Assembly: GCA_036376135.1 (NCBI GenBank)
Contig: DASVAW010000179.1
Coordinates: 19,566 to 83,565, forward strand
DNA length: 64,000 bases
Origin: Candidatus Polarisedimenticolaceae bacterium
GTDB lineage: Bacteria > Acidobacteriota > Polarisedimenticolia > Polarisedimenticolales > DASRJG01
Direction of reading: 5' to 3'
Shown: in pieces, positions 806 through 50,474 of the stretch
Position numbering within the stretch: position 1 is the stretch's first letter
How the letters are laid out: every line of letters begins with the position of its first letter
Notes under the pieces: model-generated
Seen by the model: the letters and a program-made list of their open reading frames with translations, nothing else
Database searches by the model: none
What the model was told of the DNA's origin: nothing
Position numbers and translations under genes: made by a program

Positions 806-2472
806 GCGCGCTCGACTGGGCGGTCCTCGTCGCCACCATCGGGTTCATCGTGGTGTACGGCGCGTGGAAGACGCGCGGCGCGGCCGACATGGACGCGTAC
901 TTCCGGGGCGATTACTCGCTGAGGTGGCCGACGATCGGTCTTTCGATCATGGCCACGCAGGCGAGCGCCATCACGTTCCTCTCGACCCCCGGACAGGCCT
1001 ACGAGGACGGGATGCGCTTCGTGCAGTTCTACTTCGGCCTGCCGCTCGCGATGATCGTGATCAGCACGGTCTTCCTGCCGATGTACTACCGCCTCAAGGT
1101 CTACACCGCCTACGAGGTCCTCGAGCACCGGTTCGACGCCCGCGTCCGGTATCTCGGCGCCGTCCTCTTCCTGATCCAGCGGGGCCTCGCGGCGGGGATC
1201 ACGATCTACGCCCCTTCGATCATCCTCAGCACGATCCTCGGCTGGCCGCTGCAGCTCACCAACCTCGCGCTCGGCGGCCTCGTCGTCGTCTACACGGTCG
1301 TGGGAGGGACGAAGGCGGTCAGCGAAACGCAGAAGCAGCAGATGATCGTCATGCTCGGGGGACTCGCCCTCGCGGCGGTCCTCATCGTGTGGCGGCTGCC
1401 CGAGTCGGTCTCGCTCCCCGACGCCTTCCGGCTCGCCGGCGCCCTCGACCGGATGAACGTGGTCAGCTTCGACTTCGACCCGAACAGCCGCTACACCTTC
1501 TGGTCCGGGATCACCGGCGGCTTCTTCCTCGCCCTCGCCTACTTCGGGACCGACCAGTCGCAGGTGCAGCGTTACCTTTCGGGGCGATCGATGACCGAGA
1601 GCCGGCTCGGCCTGATCTTCAACGGGATGTTCAAGATCCCGATGCAGTTCACGATCCTGTTCGTCGGCGTGATGGTCTTCGTCTTCTACCTCTTCGTGAA
1701 GCCGCCGATCTTCTTCAACACCCCCGCCCTCGAGCGCGCCGCCTCGAGCGCGCACGCCCCCGAGCTCGCCGCGCTCGAGTCCCGCTACGACGTCGCCTTC
1801 GACGCGCGCAAGGAGGCCGCGACCGCGTTCGCGGACGGGGGAGGGGAGGCCGCCCGGGTCGCGCTGCGGGAGGCGGACGCGAGGATCGACGCCCTGCGCG
1901 TCGAGGCCAGAGACCTCGTGAAGAAGGCCGTCCCGAACGCCGAGATGCAGGACGCCGACTACGTCTTCCTGAGCTTCGTGCTCGGCTACGTCCCGAAGGG
2001 GCTGGTGGGCCTGCTCATCGCGGTGATCCTCTGCGCCGCGATGAGCTCGACCTCGAGCGAGCTCGCCGCCCTCGGCTCGACGACGACGGTCGACCTGTAC
2101 AAGCGTCTCGGGAGGAAGATCTCCAGCCCCGGGGACGACCTGCGCGCGTCGAAGATCTTCACCCTCCTCTGGGGGGCGATCGCCGTTTCCTTCGCGAGCT
2201 TCGCCGCCCTCCTCGACAACCTCATCGAGGCGGTGAACATCCTCGGGTCGTTGTTCTACGGGACGATCCTCGGCCTGTTCGTCGTCGCCTTCTTCTTCAA
2301 GTTCGTGTCCGCGACCCCGGTGCTCGTCGGGGCGCTCGCGGCGCTGGCGACGGTCCTCACCCTGTTCTTCACGTCGGACATCGGCTTTCTCTGGTTCAAC
2401 GCGATCGGGTGCGGGATCGTCGTGGCCGTCTCGGTCGTTCTCGAGTGGGCGAAACGTGCGCGGGCCGCGTGA
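793..2472 (+). CDS. Sodium:solute symporter family (SSF) transporter
   Basis: 559-aa polytopic membrane protein. The N-terminus LDWAVLVATIGFIVVYGAWKTRG and GGTKAVSETQKQQM are SSF-like. GTG start at 793, or at 802 if coupled to the small ORF. Confidence 0.85.
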   Translation: MGLVSALDWAVLVATIGFIVVYGAWKTRGAADMDAYFRGDYSLRWPTIGLSIMATQASAITFLSTPGQAYEDGMRFVQFYFGLPLAMIVISTVFLPMYYRLKVYTAYEVLEHRFDARVRYLGAVLFLIQRGLAAGITIYAPSIILSTILGWPLQLTNLALGGLVVVYTVVGGTKAVSETQKQQMIVMLGGLALAAVLIVWRLPESVSLPDAFRLAGALDRMNVVSFDFDPNSRYTFWSGITGGFFLALAYFGTDQSQVQRYLSGRSMTESRLGLIFNGMFKIPMQFTILFVGVMVFVFYLFVKPPIFFNTPALERAASSAHAPELAALESRYDVAFDARKEAATAFADGGGEAARVALREADARIDALRVEARDLVKKAVPNAEMQDADYVFLSFVLGYVPKGLVGLLIAVILCAAMSSTSSELAALGSTTTVDLYKRLGRKISSPGDDLRASKIFTLLWGAIAVSFASFAALLDNLIEAVNILGSLFYGTILGLFVVAFFFKFVSATPVLVGALAALATVLTLFFTSDIGFLWFNAIGCGIVVAVSVVLEWAKRARAA

Positions 2473-2539
2473 CGGGTTCTCGGGGAGCGCGGCGCAGGGT
2501 ACGATCGCCGGGCGTTCGCAACCGTGCTCGGAGGGCCCC

Positions 2540-3655
2540 ATGCACGAGATCTCCGTCGACGAGCTCAAGCGCCGGCTCGAATCGGGCGCGGCCGTCACCG
2601 TGGTGGACGTCCGGGAACGCCCCGAGCACGAAGCCTGGAGCATCCACGGAAGCGTCAACCTCCCCGCCTACGACTCCCTGAGAGCCGGGCGGGACGAACC
2701 GCTGCGATCCCAGGCGGCGAGCCTCCCGGCGGGCCGTCCGGTGGTGGCCGTCTGCAAGGCGGGGGTGATCTCCCGCCGGGCCGCGGCCACGCTCGCACAG
2801 CTCGGATTCGAGGCCGCGAGCCTCTCGGGCGGGATGCGGGCGTGGGGCGGGGTCTGGACCGAGGCGTCGATGCCCCTCGAGACCGCCGGGGCCGTCGGCG
2901 TCCAGGTGCGGCGGAACGGGAAGGGATGCCTGTCGTACCTCCTCGCCTCGCAGGGCGAGGCGGTCGTCGTCGATCCGTCGGTGGACGTCGCCGCCTACCT
3001 CGCGATCGCGGCGCGGCTTGGCGCGACGATCCGCGCGGTCGTCGAGACCCACGTGCACGCCGACCACCTCTCGCGGGCGCGCGCGCTCGCCGAGGCCACC
3101 GGCGCCGCGTTGCACCTTCCGGCGAACGACCGGGCGCGCTTCGCGTTCACCCCGGTCCGCGACGGCGACGCGATCGCCGTCGGCGCCCTGCGGCTTACGG
3201 CCGTCGCCACCCCCGGACACACGCTCGAGAGCACCTGTTACCGCGTGGACGATTCGAACCTCCTGACCGGCGACACGGTCTTCGTCGGGGGATTCGGTCG
3301 GCCCGACCTCGAGCGCGGGGACGCGGGGGCGGGGGAGGCGGCGAGGCTGCTCCACCGCAGCCTGACGCGTCGCCTGCGCGCCCTCCCCCCCGCGATGCGC
3401 GCCTGGCCCGCCCACCACGCCCACCCGGTGGCGCTCGACGGCGTCCCCGTGCACACGAGGCTCGGCGAGGCGCTCGACGGGATCGAGGCGCTCGCGATGG
3501 ACGAGGAGTCGTTCGCACGCTCGGTGGCGGAGGCGCTTCCGCCCAAGCCGCCGAACTTCCAGGTCGTGCTCGCGGTGAACGAGGGGCGAGCGCCCCTCGG
3601 CGAGCTGGACCCCCTCGATCTCGAAGCGGGCCCGAACCGCTGCGCGGCCCGTTAG
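2540..3655 (+). CDS. Rhodanese domain fused to a metallo-beta-lactamase-fold (persulfide dioxygenase-like) hydrolase
   Basis: ATG 2540 (MHEISVDELKRRL). Rhodanese active-site loop VAVCKAGVISRR, then MBL motif ETHVHADH and TPGHT. The upstream 28 codons of the track ORF lack support. Confidence 0.85.
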   Translation: MHEISVDELKRRLESGAAVTVVDVRERPEHEAWSIHGSVNLPAYDSLRAGRDEPLRSQAASLPAGRPVVAVCKAGVISRRAAATLAQLGFEAASLSGGMRAWGGVWTEASMPLETAGAVGVQVRRNGKGCLSYLLASQGEAVVVDPSVDVAAYLAIAARLGATIRAVVETHVHADHLSRARALAEATGAALHLPANDRARFAFTPVRDGDAIAVGALRLTAVATPGHTLESTCYRVDDSNLLTGDTVFVGGFGRPDLERGDAGAGEAARLLHRSLTRRLRALPPAMRAWPAHHAHPVALDGVPVHTRLGEALDGIEALAMDEESFARSVAEALPPKPPNFQVVLAVNEGRAPLGELDPLDLEAGPNRCAAR

Positions 3656-11458: not shown

Positions 11459-12888
11459 CCCGCGTCGAAGAAGTAGGTCAGGGTGTAGGGAACGCACTCG
11501 AATCCGGGCGACCCGACCCCGCGCACCCGAACGTAGGTGATGTAGTTGTCCGTCAGGGTGCAGTCGCCGTCGAGGAGCACGCGCAGGGACTGCGAGGTCC
11601 CCGCGGGGACCGTGACGCACGAGGCGAACGAGCAGGATCCGACGTTCACGCAAAGCTCGTAGCTCCCCGCGCTCGCGGGGACGGTGAGCGTGACGTCGAG
11701 GTTGTAGTCCTCGTCGAACGAGAACGCGCCGCAGGCGCACGAGGAGTCCGTTTCGGTCGCCGTGAAGCGGAAGAGGTCGGCGTCGCCGGAGGGATAAACC
11801 GTCATCGTGGAGTACGTCCGCGTCTGATCGCTTCCGACGTTCGACAACGCCGCGAACGACGTGCAATCGGGGTTGGGCTCGAGCGAGTCCGAGAACGCCC
11901 CGTTGTCCACGGTCCCGTCGCAGTTGTCGTCGACGTCGTTGCAGGTCTCCGTCGTCGGGTTTCCCGGGGTGCAGGTGTTCGGCGCGCCGTTGATGCACTG
12001 GTTGACGGTGACCTGGCAGGCGCCCACCCCGCAGGACTGCGTACCGGGGTTCACGTTCGTGCACGACCCCGCCGTGGTCCCCGAGCACGTCGCGAGGTTG
12101 GGATCCTGGCAGGTCGGATGACACGTGAGAGTCGTCGGGCCCGCGGTCGTCTGCGCGCCGCACTCCTGCGCCTGCGTCCGGCAGGCGAACGCTCCGTCGC
12201 ACGTCGCCTGCGAGGCGGAGACGTCGGCCTTGCGAAGGCACGAGTCCCCCGACCATCCCCAGTAATACCCGGTGCAGGAGACGCCGGCGCACTCGGCGTC
12301 GGGATCGGTCCCTGCGGGGATCGCGCTGCAGGTGCCGGCATTCCCGGCGAGATCACACGCTGCGCAGACCCCGACGCAGGAGCCGTCGCAGCAGACGTCG
12401 TCCGTGCAGCTCAGCCCGGGCGAGCACTGGCTCGGGGCCGAGCAGAACCCGCCCTGCCCGACGTCGGGGACGCAGGTCCCCGCGTCGCAGTGCTCGCTCG
12501 CGGGGCAGTCGGTGTCGAAGACACACCCGGTGCAGCCGTTGTCGATGGTGCCGTCGCAGTCGTCGTCGATGCCGTCGCAGATCTCCGGGGTCGGGGTCAC
12601 GCAGGTCCCGACCACTCGATAGAACAGGAGCTTGTCGGCAGGTGGCGTGTCGGTCCACGCGGAGCCGGTCGTCTGGCCGAGCCAGTTCGCGGCGTCGACG
12701 ATTCCCCCCGGGCTCGAGGATCGGTAGACGTCGAACGGGCCGGCCCCGCCGGTCCAGGTCAACTGGACTTCGCCGACGTTGGGGCCACGGTCGACCCGAA
12801 GGGCGACGTCGTCGGCCGCGAAAGCCGACAACCCCGCCAGTACGGCGGCGAGCACGAAGAGAGCGCGCACTCCCGGGGCCTGGAGCAT
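11446..12888 (-). CDS. Secreted Cys-rich protein with MopE-type putative metal-binding motifs and a PPC-like C-terminal domain
   Basis: Signal peptide MLQAPGVRALFVLAAVLAGLSAFA. CDGIDDDCDGTIDNG and CNDVDDNCDGTVDNG motifs, about 45 Cys. An alternative start at 12939 would give an ATGA overlap with the upstream TPR gene stop. Only the 3' 1.4 kb of the 2259-aa track ORF is credible. Confidence 0.75.
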   Translation of the reverse strand: MLQAPGVRALFVLAAVLAGLSAFAADDVALRVDRGPNVGEVQLTWTGGAGPFDVYRSSSPGGIVDAANWLGQTTGSAWTDTPPADKLLFYRVVGTCVTPTPEICDGIDDDCDGTIDNGCTGCVFDTDCPASEHCDAGTCVPDVGQGGFCSAPSQCSPGLSCTDDVCCDGSCVGVCAACDLAGNAGTCSAIPAGTDPDAECAGVSCTGYYWGWSGDSCLRKADVSASQATCDGAFACRTQAQECGAQTTAGPTTLTCHPTCQDPNLATCSGTTAGSCTNVNPGTQSCGVGACQVTVNQCINGAPNTCTPGNPTTETCNDVDDNCDGTVDNGAFSDSLEPNPDCTSFAALSNVGSDQTRTYSTMTVYPSGDADLFRFTATETDSSCACGAFSFDEDYNLDVTLTVPASAGSYELCVNVGSCSFASCVTVPAGTSQSLRVLLDGDCTLTDNYITYVRVRGVGSPGFECVPYTLTYFFDAGYCR

Positions 12889-23007: not shown

Positions 23008-23253
23008 TTACTTCGCGGCTTTCGCCGTCGTCTTGGCGGTCGCCTTCTTGGCGGACTTCTTCTTCGCGGGTTTGGCGGGAGCGGCGGTGTCGCTGGGCTG
23101 GACCGAGAGCATCTTGGTCACGAACTTGCGCGTGCCGGCGGTATCGAAGTCGATCACCGTGTAATCGGCGTCCGTCGAGGCGATCGTCCCGTCCCCGAAG
23201 ACCGGGTGAACGACCCGATCGTTGGCGGAGAAGGTCGTGGTGGCTTTGCTCAT
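23008..23253 (-). CDS. 81-aa protein: Tudor/DUF3553-like fold plus a Lys/Ala-rich histone-H1-like tail
   Basis: MSKATTTFSANDRVVHPVFGDGTIAS..YTVIDFDTAGTRKFV, then PAKPAKKKSAKKATAKTTAKAAK. This is the only credible part of the 521-aa track ORF. Confidence 0.6.
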   Translation of the reverse strand: MSKATTTFSANDRVVHPVFGDGTIASTDADYTVIDFDTAGTRKFVTKMLSVQPSDTAAPAKPAKKKSAKKATAKTTAKAAK

Positions 23254-23355: not shown

Positions 23356-24552
23356 ATGCGCGCCCGTGGGCTCGTCCTCGCGACCGTTCTCGTGTTCTTG
23401 GCGTGTACGCCGAAACCGGCGCCCGCGCCCTTCCACGGCCTGCCGTTCGTCGAGAACGACTTCGACGCGGCCCTCGCGAAGGCGAGAGCGGCGGCGGTCC
23501 CGATCTTCGTCGAGGTGTGGGCCCCCTGGTGACACACCTGCCGCTACATGCGGGCGACGGTCTTCACGGACCCGGCGCTCGCACGGCACGCCGGACGGTT
23601 CGTCTGGCTCTCGATCGACACCGAAAACGAGAAAAACGTCGGCTTCCTCGAGAAGTACCCCTGGGAGGCCGTGCCGACCTTCCAGGTCCTCGACCCGAAG
23701 ACCGGCGACGTCGTCTACCGCTGGCTCGGCGCCGTCGACGCGGCGGCGCTGGCGAAGCGGTTCGACGAGGCGGAGCTCGCGCTGAAGGAGGCGCGCCCCG
23801 ACGGCGCACCAAAGCTCCCGTCGAGCGCCGACTCGGAAGTCCTCGCCCTCGCGATGGCCGGGAAGAACGACGAGTGCCTCGCGGCGGCATCCGCACGTTG
23901 GGACACCCTTCCCCCCGGGGGGGAGAAGGCGGGGGTCGCGGCGCTCGGGCTCGACTGCGCCCTCTCGCTGAAGTCCGAAGCGGCGGCGATCTTCGAGGCG
24001 CGCGTGAAGGAGGCGACGGCGTACCCGGGTCTTCTCGACGACGACCGTTCGAGCCTCTTCGGCGCGCTGGTGGACGCGCGCGACCGGCAGCAGGACGAGG
24101 CGGGGGGGAAGGCGGCGGCGCTCGCCTGGCTCGACTACCTCGACGCGCAGGCGAAGTCGGCCGGAAGCGTCGAGGCACGTGCGGCCCTCGACGGCCATCG
24201 GGTCTCGGCCGCGATGCGCGCGGGGGACCCGGCGCGGATGATCCCGGCCCTCGAGGCGTCGGTGCGCGACCTCCCGGAGGACTACAACCCTTCGGCGCGC
24301 CTGGCGATGCTCCTGCGCGAAGCGGGCCGGCTCGACGAGGCGCTCGCCGCGTCGGACCGGGCGTTGTCGAAGGCCTACGGCCCCCGCAAGCTCAACCTCT
24401 TCGACGCCCGCGCGACGATCCTCGAGAAGAAGGGGGACGCGGAGGGGGCGAAGGCCGTCCTGAGGCAGGCGCTGGCCTACGCGCAGACCCTTCCCGAGGC
24501 GCAGCGGTCGAAGGGGATGATCGGACGGATCGAAAAGCGGCTGGGCGGTTAG
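23356..24552 (+). CDS. Thioredoxin-like (UxxC) selenoprotein candidate with a lipoprotein-type signal peptide and a C-terminal TPR-like domain; TGA 23530-23532 read as Sec
   Basis: ATG 23356 is in frame with track ORF 23548-24552. MRARGLVLATVLVFLAC.., IFVEVWAPW-TGA-HTCRYM.., cis-Pro VPTF. The stop falls exactly on the first Cys of the WxxWCxxC redox motif. Confidence 0.6.
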
Positions 24553-45948: not shown

Positions 45949-47151
45949 ATGGGCGCGACCGCCTTCATCTTCGTCACCGTGGTCCTCGACGTGCTCGCGA
46001 TGGGCGTCGTGATCCCCGTCCTGCCGCGGCTGGTCGAGGGGTTCCTCGGCGGCGACACCGCGAGCGCGGCGGAGATGTACGGGGTCTTCGGGACCGCCTG
46101 GGCGGCGATGCAGTTCGTCTTCTCGCCCGTGATGGGCGTCCTCTCCGACCGCTTCGGGCGCCGCCCCGTGATCCTGGCCTCGAACTTCGGGCTCGGGTTC
46201 GACTACGTGCTGATGGCGCTCGCCCCGAACCTCGGGTGGTTGTTCGCGGGGCGGGTGATCTCGGGGATCACCGGGGCGAGCTTTTCGGCGGCGTCGGCGT
46301 ACATCGCCGACGTGACGCCCCCCGAGCGGCGCGCCGCCGGGTTCGGGATGATCGGCGCCGCCTTCGGGCTCGGCTTCGTCCTCGGGCCGGCGCTCGGCGG
46401 CATCCTCGGCTCCGCGCACCCCCGGCTTCCGTTCTGGGTCGCGGCGGGGCTGACCCTGGCCAATGCGAGCTGGGGGCTGTTCGTGCTCCCCGAGTCGCTC
46501 CCCGCCGACCGCCGCCGCCCGTTCGACTGGTCCCGCGCGAACCCGATCGGAACCCTGCGCCTGCTCGGCTCGCACCGGGAGCTGCTCGGCCTCGCTTCGG
46601 TGAACTTCCTGTACCAGCTCGCGCACCAGGTGCTGCCGAGCGTCTTCGTCCTCTACGCGGGGTACCGGTACGCATGGAACGAGAGGACGGTGGGGCTGAC
46701 GCTCGCCCTCGTGGGAGTGGGGAGCATGGTGGTGCAGGGAGCGCTCGTTCGTCCGATCGTGGCGTGGCTGGGCGAGCGCCGCACCCTGATGTGCGGCCTC
46801 GCGGCGGGGGCCGCCGGGATGGCCGCGTTCGGCCTCGCCCCGACCGGAGGGTGGTTCTGGGCGTCGCTCCCCGTCTTCGCGTTCATGGGCTTGTACGGCC
46901 CCGCGGCACAGGGGATCATGACGAGGCGGGTCGACCCGTCGCAGCAGGGTCACCTCCAGGGGGCGAACACGAGCATCCTCGGCATCACGGGTCTCATCGG
47001 GCCCGGCATGTTCACGCTCACCTTCGCGGCCTTCATCGGAGCCCGCGCGGATCTCCACCTCCCGGGGGCGGCGTTCCTGCTCGCGGCGTTCCTTCTCCTG
47101 GGAGCGATCCCGCTGGCGGTCGCGGTCACCCGCGGGGAGGTGCCTCGATGA
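45949..47151 (+). CDS. MFS efflux transporter, TetA/TCR (tetracycline-resistance-type) family
   Basis: VLDVLAMGVVIPVLP, GVLSDRFGRRPVIL (motif A), GRVISGITGAS, and GLGFVLGPALGG closely follow TetA-class pumps. 12 TM segments. Confidence 0.85.
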   Translation: MGATAFIFVTVVLDVLAMGVVIPVLPRLVEGFLGGDTASAAEMYGVFGTAWAAMQFVFSPVMGVLSDRFGRRPVILASNFGLGFDYVLMALAPNLGWLFAGRVISGITGASFSAASAYIADVTPPERRAAGFGMIGAAFGLGFVLGPALGGILGSAHPRLPFWVAAGLTLANASWGLFVLPESLPADRRRPFDWSRANPIGTLRLLGSHRELLGLASVNFLYQLAHQVLPSVFVLYAGYRYAWNERTVGLTLALVGVGSMVVQGALVRPIVAWLGERRTLMCGLAAGAAGMAAFGLAPTGGWFWASLPVFAFMGLYGPAAQGIMTRRVDPSQQGHLQGANTSILGITGLIGPGMFTLTFAAFIGARADLHLPGAAFLLAAFLLLGAIPLAVAVTRGEVPR

Positions 47152-50100
47152 GCGCGCTGATCCCGGTCGGGCTGATCGCGGCGCTGCTGGTATGCGCGTA
47201 CCTGCTCGGACGACGCGGGGGCCGCGCCGTTCCCGCTCCGTCGCCCCAGGCTCCGGACGCGGCCGCGACGCTCTACCGGATCGCGGGGGAGCTCGTGCCG
47301 TTCTTCCAGGCGTCGGCGCACCCGAAGGACCTCCTGGACAATCCCGGTTTCCGCCGCGGCGTCGACCTGCTCCGCGGACCGTCGTGGTCGGCCGAGACGC
47401 TGCTGGGGTACTACGCCGGCGACAACGCCGTGATCGCGTGCCTCGCCCTCGAGGCGCTGTGCGCGCGCGCCGACGACGTCGACGTGCGTCCGGCGGTCCT
47501 CGCCGGGATCAACGACTTCAACCCCTGGAACCGGTACTTCTCCTTGCGCCTGCTCGCCGCGAAGAGCCCCGTCGGCGGGGAGCCGATCGTCGGACGCCTC
47601 CTGATGCGGCTGAACGATTCGTGGCTGTTCCCCGCGAACCTCCAGTTCCTCCGGGAGTTCCTCGCCACCCGGGAGGCGGCCGGCGAGCCGCCGACCCTCG
47701 GGACGCTGGTGGAGGGGCTCAACGACGCGTCGGCGACGACGCTCGGCTCGATCCTGGAGCGCCTGCCCGGCGAGCTCGCCGGACCGGTGGCGGCGGAGAT
47801 TGCCGCGTGGCGCGTCCGCAGCATCGACCGCGAGTTCCTGGCCTCGATCGGGCGGCTCTGGACCGCCGGCGAGGGGGAGCCGCTCGTCGAGCACGCGGGG
47901 CTCGCGCAGGCGACGTCGAGCGTGCTCGCGTCCATCCTCGCGCACCCGAGCCGATCGGTCCTTCTCGTCGGCGAACACGGCGTCGGGAAGTCCGCGGTCG
48001 CGCGGCGCGCGGCGGAGGCGCTGCTCGCGCGCGACTGGACCGTTTTCGAGACCCAGGCGACCGACCTCCTCGCGGGGATGTCGTATCTGGGGGAGCTCGA
48101 GGAGCGCGTCCGCGATCTCGTCGCGAAGCTCCGGGGAAGGCCGGTCCTGTGGTACGTCCCGGGGTTCCACATGCTCACGCTCGCGGGGCGGCACCGTTAC
48201 GGCCCGGCCAGTCTGCTCGACATGATCCTCCCGCACGTGGACAAGGGGGAGATCGTCGTCCTGGGAGAGACCTCGCCGTCGGGGTACGAACGCGTCGTGC
48301 AATCCGCCTCGCGCGTCCCCGCGGCCTTCGAGGTCGTGAGGATCGAGCCCACCTCGTCCGCCGCGACGCTCGACCTCGTCACGGCGTGGTCGTCGCAGCG
48401 CGCGCGGCCGGGAGCCGAGGCGCTCGTCGACGACGCGACGCGACACGAAGCCTGGCAGCTCGCGCAGCAGTACCGGGGGGACCGGGCCGCGCCGGGGAAC
48501 GTCCTGGAGCTGCTCGAGCGCACGCTCGCGCGCCTCTCCGCGGGCGGCGAGCGGCCCGCGACGATCACCCTCGGGGATCTCGTCGATACCCTCGGCCGGC
48601 TGACCGGACTTCCCGCGACGATCCTCGATCCCCGGGCGGGGCTCGACGTCGCGTCGCTGCGGGCGATGTTCGAACGGCACGTGCTCGGGCAGCCCGAGGC
48701 GGTGGACTGCCTCGTCGAGCGCGTGGCGATGGTCAAGGCGGGGGTGACCGATCCGAAGCGTCCGCTCGGCGTCTTCCTGTTCGCGGGGCCGACGGGGACG
48801 GGAAAGACCGAGATCGCGAAGACCCTCGCGCGATTCCTCTTCGGCTCCCCCGACCGGATGATCCGGCTGGACATGAGCGAGTTCCAGGGGCCCGAGTCGC
48901 TCAACCGGCTCCTCGGGGAGTCGGATGCGGACGCGGGAAGGACGGGGGCGGCGCTGGTCGACCGCATCCGCAAGGAGCCGTTCTCGGTGATCCTCCTCGA
49001 CGAGGTCGAGAAGGCGCACGAGAAGGTCTGGGACCTGTTCCTGCAGGTCTTCGACGACGGCCGCCTCACGGACCGGCAGGGCGCGACGGCGGACTTCCGC
49101 AACGCGATCGTGATCCTCACGTCCAATCTCGGCGCCGCGATCCCCAGCGGGGCGTCGCTGGGGTTCCTGGACGCGACGGGGCGCTTCTCGCCGTCGACGG
49201 TGCTCAAGACGGTGGAGAAGAGCTTCCGGAAGGAGTTCCTCAACCGGCTCGACCGCATCGTGGTCTTCCGGCCGCTCGCGCGGGAGACGATGCGCGACAT
49301 CCTCCGCAAGGAGCTCACCGAGGCGTTCGAGCGGCGCGGCCTCAGGCAGCGGGCCTGGGCCGTCGAGTTCGACGCCGGCGCGCTCGACCTGCTGCTCGAG
49401 CGCGGCTTCACCGCCGATCTCGGCGCGCGCCCGCTGAAACGCTCGGTGGAGCGGCACCTCCTCGCGCCGCTCGCATTGACGATCGTGGAGCATCGCGTGC
49501 CGGAGGGGGACCAGTTCCTGTTCGTGAAGGCCGAGCAGGGAAGGCTCGTCGTCGAGTTCATCGACCCCGACGCGCCGGACCCGGCGGCGCCCGCGGCGCC
49601 GGCCGACGCCCCGGCCGGCACCGACCGCTCCCCGGCGCGCATCGCCGTCGCCCCCGCCGGGACGGCGGCGGAGATCGCCGCCCTCGCGCGTGCGCATGCG
49701 CGCCTCGAGGAGCTTCTCGACGCGGAGGCGATCCACGCCGCGAAGGGGGACGCGTTGTCGCGGATGCGCGAACCCGCGTTCTGGGAGTCCCCCGACCGGT
49801 TCGCGCTGCTCGGCCGGATCGAGCAGCTCGACCGCATCGAGAGCGGCGTGCGGGCCGCGGGGTCGCTGCTCGAACGGCTCGAGTCCCGGGAGCGCGCTCC
49901 GCGCGACCTCGTCGGCCGGCTGGCGATGCAGCTGCACCTTCTGGATCTCGCCGTCCACGACGCGATCGAGGACCGGCCCTCCGACGCGTTCGTCGCCGTC
50001 GAGGCCTGGGGGGACGCGGGCTCGCCGTCCCGGGATTCGAACGCCTTCGCCGCGCGCGTGGCCGCCATGTACCGCGCCTGGGCGGATCGGCGCGGGATCC

Positions 50101-50474
50101 AGGTCGAGGATCTCCCCGCGCCGGCGACCGACGGGGTGTTCCGGGCCGCGTTCGGCGTCGCGGGGCACGGCGCCTTCTCGACCCTTTCTCGCGAAGCCGG
50201 CCTCCACGTGCTCGAGATTCCCGAAGGGGAGGGCCGGGGCGAGCGACGCGCGATCGCCCGCGTGAGGGTGGTCCCGCAGCCCGACGGTCCCGCCGACGGC
50301 CGCGCCGTTCTCGACGCCGCGGGCGCGGGGGCGCCTTCGATCGTGCGACGCTACCGCGAGCTGCCGTCTCCCTTGGTCCGCGACGTCGTTGCGGGATGGC
50401 GGAGCGGGAAGCTCGACAGGGTGCTCGCCGGGGACTTCGACCTGATCGCCGCCGCCGACGCGCGGTCGGGTTAG
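47148..50474 (+). CDS. Membrane-anchored ClpC/ClpB-like double-AAA+ ATPase fused to a GGQ-less RF2-like (PCRF) domain
   Basis: ATG 47148 overlaps the MFS stop (ATGA). TM aa 3-22. D1 has GEHGVGKS but a degenerate Walker B. D2 has [18 protein letters not shown], LGF loop and GARPLKR. The C-terminal 270 aa align by eye to RF2 domains 1/2/4. See findings. Confidence 0.8.
   Translation: [1108 protein letters not shown]

Follow-up and report, generated by a model that had tools for sequence, protein, structure and literature searches.

Is the UGA triplet that interrupts a thioredoxin-like reading frame in an acidobacterial genome a stop signal, or is it read as selenocysteine (Sec), and, if so, which RNA element would direct the insertion? 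The question is raised by a stretch of 64,000 nt (hereafter the window) from Candidatus Polarisedimenticolaceae bacterium (assembly GCA_036376135.1, contig DASVAW010000179.1, positions 19,566 to 83,565 of the forward strand). A preliminary description of this DNA had proposed that a UxxC selenoprotein is hidden by an in-frame TGA, located where a thioredoxin (Trx) C-x-x-C motif has its first Cys. The explanation that we find likely for the locus as a whole is an exported selenoprotein in which a Trx domain is followed by a tetratricopeptide repeat (TPR)-like domain, with Sec at residue 59 and a SECIS (Sec insertion sequence) built of two hairpins.

An in-frame TGA at a thioredoxin active site

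The frame that opens at ATG 23356 begins with MRARGLVLATVLVFLAC, reaches the TGA through AVPIFVEVWAPW and resumes as HTCRYMRATVF. As had been described, it leads into the open reading frame (ORF) 23548–24552, which lies in the same frame (192 nt, 64 codons) and is separated from the start by no break other than TGA 23530–23532. The elements of the candidate gene are as follows.

23356–24552, plus strand: full gene of the putative selenoprotein, 398 codons including Sec59, with a TAG stop at 24550–24552; a single frame through the TGA
23530–23532, plus strand: UGA, the probable Sec59 codon (at this alignment column, 84 loci have TGA and 10 have TGC/TGT)
23530–23541, plus strand: redox motif U-H-T-C, from the sequence and the family alignment

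The G+C content of third codon positions (GC3) is 0.92 before TGA 23530 and 0.93 after it, in a window of 71% G+C. With U read as C, the Pfam family Thioredoxin_7 (PF13899) matches residues 33–114 (E = 9e-12; 45.4 bits, the cutoff being 27). This domain extends across the TGA and agrees with its proposed position at the first Cys of the Trx-fold motif. TGA is also the most frequent true stop in the window, ending 13 of 23 Pfam-supported genes; the standard genetic code thus applies, and UGA 23530 needs a specific signal to be read otherwise. An exact-sequence look-up of the window ORF returned no entry on record.

Relatives carry TGA or a Cys codon at the same column

A homology search with the full-length sequence gave 1160 relatives. 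The top 97 cover just 82–84% of the query, all of them beginning at the Met six codons past the TGA. More than 100 database homologues comprise the C-terminal ~335–378 aa only and are named, where they carry a name, ‘tetratricopeptide repeat protein’ (NCBI, JGI); public gene calls indeed miss the redox centre, as had been anticipated. Full-length relatives are more distant (42–46% identity) and read WAPW-C-HTC. On contigs taken from one genome per species, 12 of the 14 loci that cover the site have TGA, and the other two, both from Myxococcota, have TGC; the sources of the 12 are Acidobacteriota, Thermoanaerobaculia, Vicinamibacteria, Eisenbacteria and some bins labelled otherwise. When metagenome contigs were added, a regular-expression count across all loci found 83 TGA, 4 TGC and 1 TGT. 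Together with locus L038 (TGA) and loci L009 and L098–L101 (Cys), this tally comes to 84 TGA and 10 TGC/TGT, a distribution of Sec and Cys of the kind that the preliminary description expected of orthologues. The 84 TGA loci belong to soil and sediment bacteria, including the four groups just named and other bins. Among the contigs with TGA forms are the large CAWFHK010000001.1 (4.46 Mb), CAWINF010000001.1 (2.27 Mb) and OY970178.1 (3.6 Mb).

Upstream of the TGA, the protein is kept in frame across the family (LPFIxDDYxxALAEAxxxxLPIFVExWAPW), and synonymous variation there is ordinary (Pro-10, for example, is CCG in 58 and CCC in 13). This stretch is therefore translated, as its amino acids are conserved while its synonymous sites vary normally. 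The N-terminal half of the Trx domain is thus a conserved part of the family, and the possibility, raised earlier, that orthologues start at the downstream Met and have no Trx motif does not hold. Among 74 Sec forms, the His, the second Cys and the two Trp ahead of U are invariant. The accepted computational criteria for a selenoprotein gene are conserved flanks, a Sec/Cys pair and TGA orthologues; here we find conserved protein sequence with a coding signal on both sides of the UGA, Cys homologues aligned to it and UGA orthologues elsewhere. We conclude that UGA 23530 very probably encodes selenocysteine.

A hairpin 64 nt downstream is under selection tied to the UGA

Downstream of the UGA, two RNA structures are found within the coding sequence.

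23590–23608, plus strand: distal hairpin GCCGGAC-GGUUC-GUCUGGC, loop 23597–23601, candidate SelB-binding core of the SECIS
23539–23588, plus strand: spacer hairpin, long and imperfect, of variable register between lineages, from the window fold and the family folds

The distal hairpin, at +60 to +78 counted from the U of the UGA, is the sole RNAalifold consensus structure of 71 distinct Sec-form RNAs. Throughout a 72-sequence alignment (A2), all cells of its seven pairs are standard-paired, and the eight sequence variants that occur all keep the pairing: they include replacements of A-U by G.U, a single double change of a G-C pair and the variant of L038, in which Gly-GGA has become Arg-AGG with an A-U/G.U swap. 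The hairpin overlies the codons Ala-Gly-Arg-Phe-Val-Trp, whose synonymous sites are frozen in Sec forms when measured against the baseline elsewhere in the same genes:

Ala codon at the distal hairpin: GCC in 74 of 74; baseline GCC 39%
Gly codon at the distal hairpin: GGA or GGG in 74 of 74, never GGC; baseline GGC 51%
Arg codon at the distal hairpin: CGG in 53 of 53; baseline CGG 29%
Val codon at the distal hairpin: GTC in 72 of 73; baseline GTC 54%

The freeze is tied to the UGA: all of the 79 distinct Sec forms have an intact hairpin with an xGU loop, as against only 3 of 10 Cys forms (Fisher p = 1.7e-8, relatedness ignored). In the two Cys forms nearest to the Sec forms (L071 and L072), the third position of the Ala codon at +20, invariant in all Sec forms, has changed from GCC to GCG or GCT, which looks like a hairpin starting to decay after the loss of Sec.

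The loop reads G/A-G-U-U-C/U, with G68 and U69 invariant in the 72 sequences. In the bacterial SECIS model, a loop of 3–9 nt tops a stem of 4–16 bp with a minimum free energy of at most -7.5 kcal/mol, a G within the first two loop positions is followed by G or U, and the apical loop lies 16–37 nt from the UGA (PMC13188914). The distal hairpin conforms in its 5-nt loop, its 7-bp stem, the position of its G and its energy (-10.6 to -13 kcal/mol), and departs from the model in its spacing of 64 nt. A scan with these rules, in which only uninterrupted stems were counted (bSECISearch permits bulges), showed that 71 of 72 sequences have a qualifying hairpin at 64 nt, whereas 1 of 72 has one at 16–37 nt.

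The preliminary description had drawn two other stems as possible SECIS elements, and neither withstood comparison with the family. The stem CCGC/UACAU/GCGG (23541–23553, within 23536–23561) can be drawn in the window and is not conserved; the same is true of CCGGCG/CGCCGG (23572–23577/23589–23594), which also clashes with the hairpin at 23590–23608. Neither is part of the minimum-free-energy fold of the window, and in most relatives the corresponding bases cannot pair. Rfam gave no matches at gathering score in the window, and a permissive Rfam scan of 23480–23680 gave narK only (E = 4.7), a chance match. A covariance model (R1) matched the window once; since the scores of this model largely follow sequence similarity, it added nothing.

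The intervening bases fold into a second hairpin

In each of the 72 RNAs, the stretch from +8 to +59 folds into one long hairpin lying directly against the distal one. With this spacer folded, 5–13 unpaired bases are left between the UGA and the distal hairpin, against 57 in the linear sequence. Compared with randomisations by synonymous codons, +3 to +59 gains 8 kcal/mol of stability in 71 Sec forms (mean z = -2.3); in the same test, a control segment of the same genes gave z = -0.2 and the Cys forms gave -1.0. RNAalifold found no fixed-register consensus on +3 to +62. The comparisons of stability, with those on the distal hairpin, show that selection acts on both hairpins at the RNA level and is linked to the UGA being present.

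A model of SelB on the ribosome separates the SECIS loop from the A-site codon by ~57 Å, or ~13 nt, and has the conserved G ~20 nt downstream (PMC4605307). In E. coli, the minihelix begins 11 nt past the UGA, and G23 and U24 are essential (PMC8659212). A folded path of 5–13 nt plus the 7-nt arm of the distal hairpin thus falls within the range of both. We therefore picture a two-hairpin SECIS in which the distal hairpin, with its 7-bp stem and G-G-U-U-C loop, would be the part bound by SelB, and in which the spacer hairpin at 23539–23588 would fold away ~50 intervening bases and so shorten the path from the UGA. SelB binding by the one hairpin and distance-setting by the other are inferred, and we put the chance that the distal hairpin and the spacer together form the working SECIS somewhat above even.

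Selenocysteine use in carriers of the gene

Among ~45 ORFs of the window surveyed with Pfam, none encodes SelA, SelB or SelD; those of suitable size proved to specify a Rieske oxygenase, a helicase of the DEAD-box type and a FabH-like enzyme. A tRNA scan of the flanks of 60 related loci found no tRNA-Sec. Acidobacteriota are known to include Sec users (PMC12013277).

When ~500 kb of flanks of related loci was scanned for other in-frame TGAs, two candidates had a Pfam domain spanning the TGA:

L043:1410–2105, plus strand: CMD/AhpD-like gene with a C-P-F-U motif (TGA at 1755), 2.2 kb upstream of the Trx-TPR gene of the same locus
L096:114–569, minus strand: rhodanese-domain gene with an in-frame TGA, VVYCGSFT-U-HAAE, and a hairpin downstream

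CMD/AhpD-like proteins with CxxU are a known selenoprotein family. The SECIS of the L043 gene is canonical, with a 6-bp stem (CGCCGC/GCGGCG) and, 17 nt past the UGA, a GGUC loop that has the same G-G-U start as the distal hairpin. Given this second selenoprotein gene on L043, at least one organism with a Trx-TPR gene appears to decode Sec. The rhodanese gene, with a GCCGCC/GGCGGC hairpin (loop CGUGAAUU) 21 nt past its UGA, is likely a selenoprotein gene as well.

A GC3 scan of the whole window pointed to one other in-frame TGA with a two-sided coding signature, at 12119–12121 on the plus strand. We rejected it as a second selenoprotein site, as it lies antisense to a real gene on the minus strand; GC3-based scans of high-GC DNA evidently pick up antisense frames. 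The gene opposite, from 11446 to ~12984 on the minus strand, encodes a Cys-rich secreted protein with MopE-like metal-binding motifs.

Weighing the explanations

Several points weigh against an exported selenoprotein decoded through two hairpins. None of selA, selB, selD and tRNA-Sec lies within the 64-kb window, an absence that is uninformative at 64 kb of a multi-megabase genome. The 64-nt spacing lies outside the 16–37 nt rule, the distal hairpin is intact in three Cys forms, and the sequences are phylogenetically related, which inflates the Fisher and shuffle statistics. The spacer hairpin shows little clean covariation: in a fixed register 73% of its cells are paired, with the register shifting among lineages, and a G-C/C-G covariation at columns 12/63 proved to be what independence predicts. 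A single domain with at most 13 exterior nt forms in 63% of synonymous randomisations against 100% of the observed sequences, a weak discrimination, and the stability of the spacer may come in part from the conserved amino-acid sequence itself. A ribosome with the UGA in its A site would need to unwind the spacer hairpin at the base. Finally, we found no report in the literature of a natural bacterial SECIS acting through a structured spacer.

A first rival explanation is that the UGA encodes Sec and the functional SECIS is the long hairpin at 23539–23588, the distal hairpin serving, for instance, for pausing, for mRNA stability or as a regulator site. The long hairpin starts 8–14 nt after the UGA, has its apical loop at ~31–35 nt, within the range of 16–37 nt, and is more stable than synonymous controls; furthermore, some bacterial SECIS elements (12.6% of BSepDB entries) misfit the consensus model (PMC13188914). 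Its apical loop (UUCAC, UCAC or UUCACC), however, lacks the conserved G, its register shifts between lineages, its apical mini-stem breaks with Val GUG (pair 36/43), and a rule-satisfying hairpin at 16–37 nt occurs in just 1 of 72 sequences. The strongest synonymous freeze, which is lost in Cys forms, sits on the distal hairpin and not on the long one. We consider a SECIS in the long hairpin unlikely. Selenium-free readthrough, in which a near-cognate Trp or Cys tRNA or a suppressor would decode the UGA and the RNA structure would merely stimulate, is more doubtful still. Downstream structures are able to stimulate stop-codon readthrough, and no Sec machinery was shown within the window. The UGA nevertheless occupies the position of the catalytic Cys of a CxxC motif, Cys in homologues, which is a specific signature of Sec; the distal hairpin has the SelB-type G-G-U loop found in the canonical SECIS of the L043 neighbour gene; and TGC would give Cys at no cost, yet TGA is retained in 84 loci.

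Two further explanations were considered. A true stop would mark a split or decaying gene, or would separate a 58-aa lipopeptide from a 334-aa TPR protein started at ATG 23548, and this matches the more than 100 database entries called as a separate TPR protein as well as the 93% conservation of Met65. Met65 is, however, equally conserved in full-length Cys forms (CHTCRxM) and is therefore not a start-codon signal. A true stop would also split the Trx fold between beta1/alpha1 and the remainder, the 334-aa product would be left with no signal peptide, and in 84 loci the 58 codons ahead of the TGA show purifying selection in the same frame; to this explanation we give hardly any weight. A sequencing or assembly error for TGC or TGT, which the preliminary description had named as a possible refutation, is the least credible of all, with the same TGA codon in 84 independent assemblies from many projects. 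The recurrence of one TGA in 84 independent loci goes far beyond coincidence and in effect rules out a read error, a pseudogene or a split gene. Sec at residue 59, with the distal hairpin at the core of its SECIS, is the reading on which we proceed.

The protein is predicted to be an exported redox enzyme

Beyond the UGA and its motif, the protein has the following parts.

23356–23406, plus strand: putative signal peptide with a lipobox-like L-A-C (Cys17), read from the sequence
23452–23757, plus strand: thioredoxin-fold domain (residues 33–134), from Pfam, PDB 2kuc_A and an AlphaFold2 model of P0098
23671–23682, plus strand: V-P-T-F, cis-Pro loop of the Trx fold, aligned to A-Y-P-T-L of 2kuc_A
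23761–24549, plus strand: all-alpha TPR-like repeat domain, from the homologue model and Foldseek, with invariant C174 and C201

The putative signal peptide noted previously is present in the window protein; the lipobox-like motif (F-L-A-C17, to be compared with the lipobox [LVI][ASTVI][GAS]C) is not conserved, most homologues having hydrophobic leaders with no lipobox Cys. The proposed thioredoxin fold agrees with the Thioredoxin_7 match, the alignment with 2kuc_A and the P0098 model, and Thioredoxin_2, Thioredoxin and Thioredox_DsbH also score above their Pfam cutoffs. The segments earlier cited in its favour, FVWLSIDTENEKN (23599–23637) and VPTF, are both found, and the Pro of the cis-Pro loop (P43 in the short ORF) does not vary across the family.

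The structure was modelled for P0098, a Cys homologue standing in for the window protein. The AlphaFold2 model (mean pLDDT 89, pTM 0.85) consists of a disordered leader, a beta-alpha Trx fold and helices from 136 to 448. Foldseek matched its repeat domain to TPR superhelices (LGN, OGT and designed CTPR) with TM scores of 0.42–0.55 and probability 1.0, and found no match to the whole architecture. TPR models score below their cutoffs on the window protein (TPR_12, 25.5 bits against 30.1; others likewise), and many homologues have precomputed TPR hits. Two Cys of this domain, Cys174 (23869–23877) and Cys201 (23950–23958), are invariant in 23 family members; in an exported protein, they may be joined in a structural disulfide or act as a second redox pair.

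The gene would thus encode an exported protein of 398 residues, with a signal peptide, a Trx domain carrying Sec59-His-Thr-Cys62 and a TPR-like domain of ~260 residues. Both export and enzymatic role are inferred: most likely, it would be a thiol:disulfide oxidoreductase that acts outside the cytoplasm and binds a client, protein or peptide, through its TPR domain, a role drawn from fold and motif only, which tells against the explanation as a whole. The family has no conserved gene neighbourhood, and the ABC transporter downstream in the window is unlinked to the gene in other loci.

Comparison with known selenoproteins and SECIS elements

Sec in place of the first Cys of a Trx-fold CxxC is a well-known kind of selenoprotein. 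Bacterial examples with UxxC include Sec-Trx, the ‘thiol:disulfide interchange protein’ (PF13098) and DsbA-like and DsbG-like proteins (PMC9312934, PMC13188914). The window protein shares with them Sec at the N-terminal Cys, Cys homologues, a gene truncated by callers and a predicted redox role; it differs in being Thioredoxin_7/DsbH-like, in its W-U-H-T-C motif, in its fusion to ~260 aa of TPR-like sequence and in its signal peptide. Text searches and the family tables of PMC9312934 and PMC13188914 gave no mention of a TPR-fused thioredoxin selenoprotein family. All 10 NCBIfam hits, selenoprotein models included, were far below cutoff, the best being TrxC (36 bits against 125), with TsoB at 29 against 805, trx7_PDZ_seleno at 16 against 300 and VPGUxxT at 22 against 275. 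The Trx-TPR family thus seems to be uncatalogued, set apart from the catalogued families by descriptions and models, and an older ‘thiol:disulfide interchange protein’ entry might overlap it.

Among single families, the Trx7/PDZ selenoprotein (NF041199; PF13899) is similar in that a Thioredoxin_7 subfamily is fused to a protein-binding domain. It combines CxxU with PDZ, whereas UxxC is combined with TPR here, and at 16 bits against a cutoff of 300 the window protein is not a member. The best solved relative is PDB 2KUC, a putative disulphide-isomerase of 130 aa (E = 6e-13 over residues 26–136), in which W-C-G-P-C aligns with W-U-H-T-C and Y-P-T-L with V-P-T-F; unlike the window protein, it is a single domain with CGPC and no TPR domain. 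The ‘chaperedoxins’ CnoX/YbbN have an N-terminal thioredoxin domain followed by TPR, and CnoX is cytoplasmic and lacks Sec. The likeness to them is one of Trx-then-TPR architecture only, and suggests a redox domain coupled to a client-binding scaffold; CnoX is absent among the 60 listed PDB sequence matches and the top 50 fold matches.

At the RNA level, the distal hairpin resembles the canonical bacterial SECIS of the E. coli fdhF type in its 7-bp stem, its 5-nt G-G-U loop and its location inside the coding sequence downstream of the UGA. It differs from the canonical element in that the loop is 64 nt after the UGA and a hairpin of ~50 nt fills the gap. Whether we have here a new class of bacterial SECIS, with a G-G-U hairpin ~64 nt out and a spacer of ~50 nt, together with an uncatalogued Trx-TPR family widespread in Acidobacteriota and neighbouring phyla from soils and sediments, is a proposition that we regard as evenly balanced.

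For annotation, the consequence would be that more than 100 ‘tetratricopeptide repeat protein’ entries each represent the C-terminal five-sixths of a redox enzyme, lacking its signal peptide and active site. Once those entries were corrected, bacteria that are abundant in soils and sediments would gain an extracytoplasmic selenoprotein family, which bears on the selenium demand of their communities. For SECIS recognition, the only UGA-tied element under RNA-level selection is found at 64 nt, whereas bacterial SECIS elements are held to follow the UGA directly. In BSepDB, 12.6% of bacterial selenoprotein genes have no canonical SECIS, and new models have been called for; the Trx-TPR family is a concrete candidate for one. 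A structured spacer, if true, would explain some of these ~13% and widen search models, and it would offer a natural design for a more distant SECIS in recombinant selenoproteins. Similarly, a two-hairpin SECIS, if true, would mean that Sec recoding is not limited to 16–37 nt and that SECIS-based searches miss such genes.

Other features of the window

At 23008–23253 on the minus strand, divergent from the putative selenoprotein gene, an ORF encodes a protein of 81 aa with a Lys/Ala-rich, histone-H1-like tail, for which we found no Pfam or NCBIfam match. A fusion of rhodanese and metallo-beta-lactamase domains, the architecture of a persulfide dioxygenase, is encoded at 2456–3655 (plus strand) and adjoins a sodium:solute symporter. 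Finally, the ORF at 46236–50474 (plus strand, 1412 aa) combines a ClpB-like region (AAA_2/D2-small) with part of a PCRF (peptide chain release factor) domain close to the C-terminus; it may be an unusual fusion, or separate ORFs that were merged, the genome being high in G+C.

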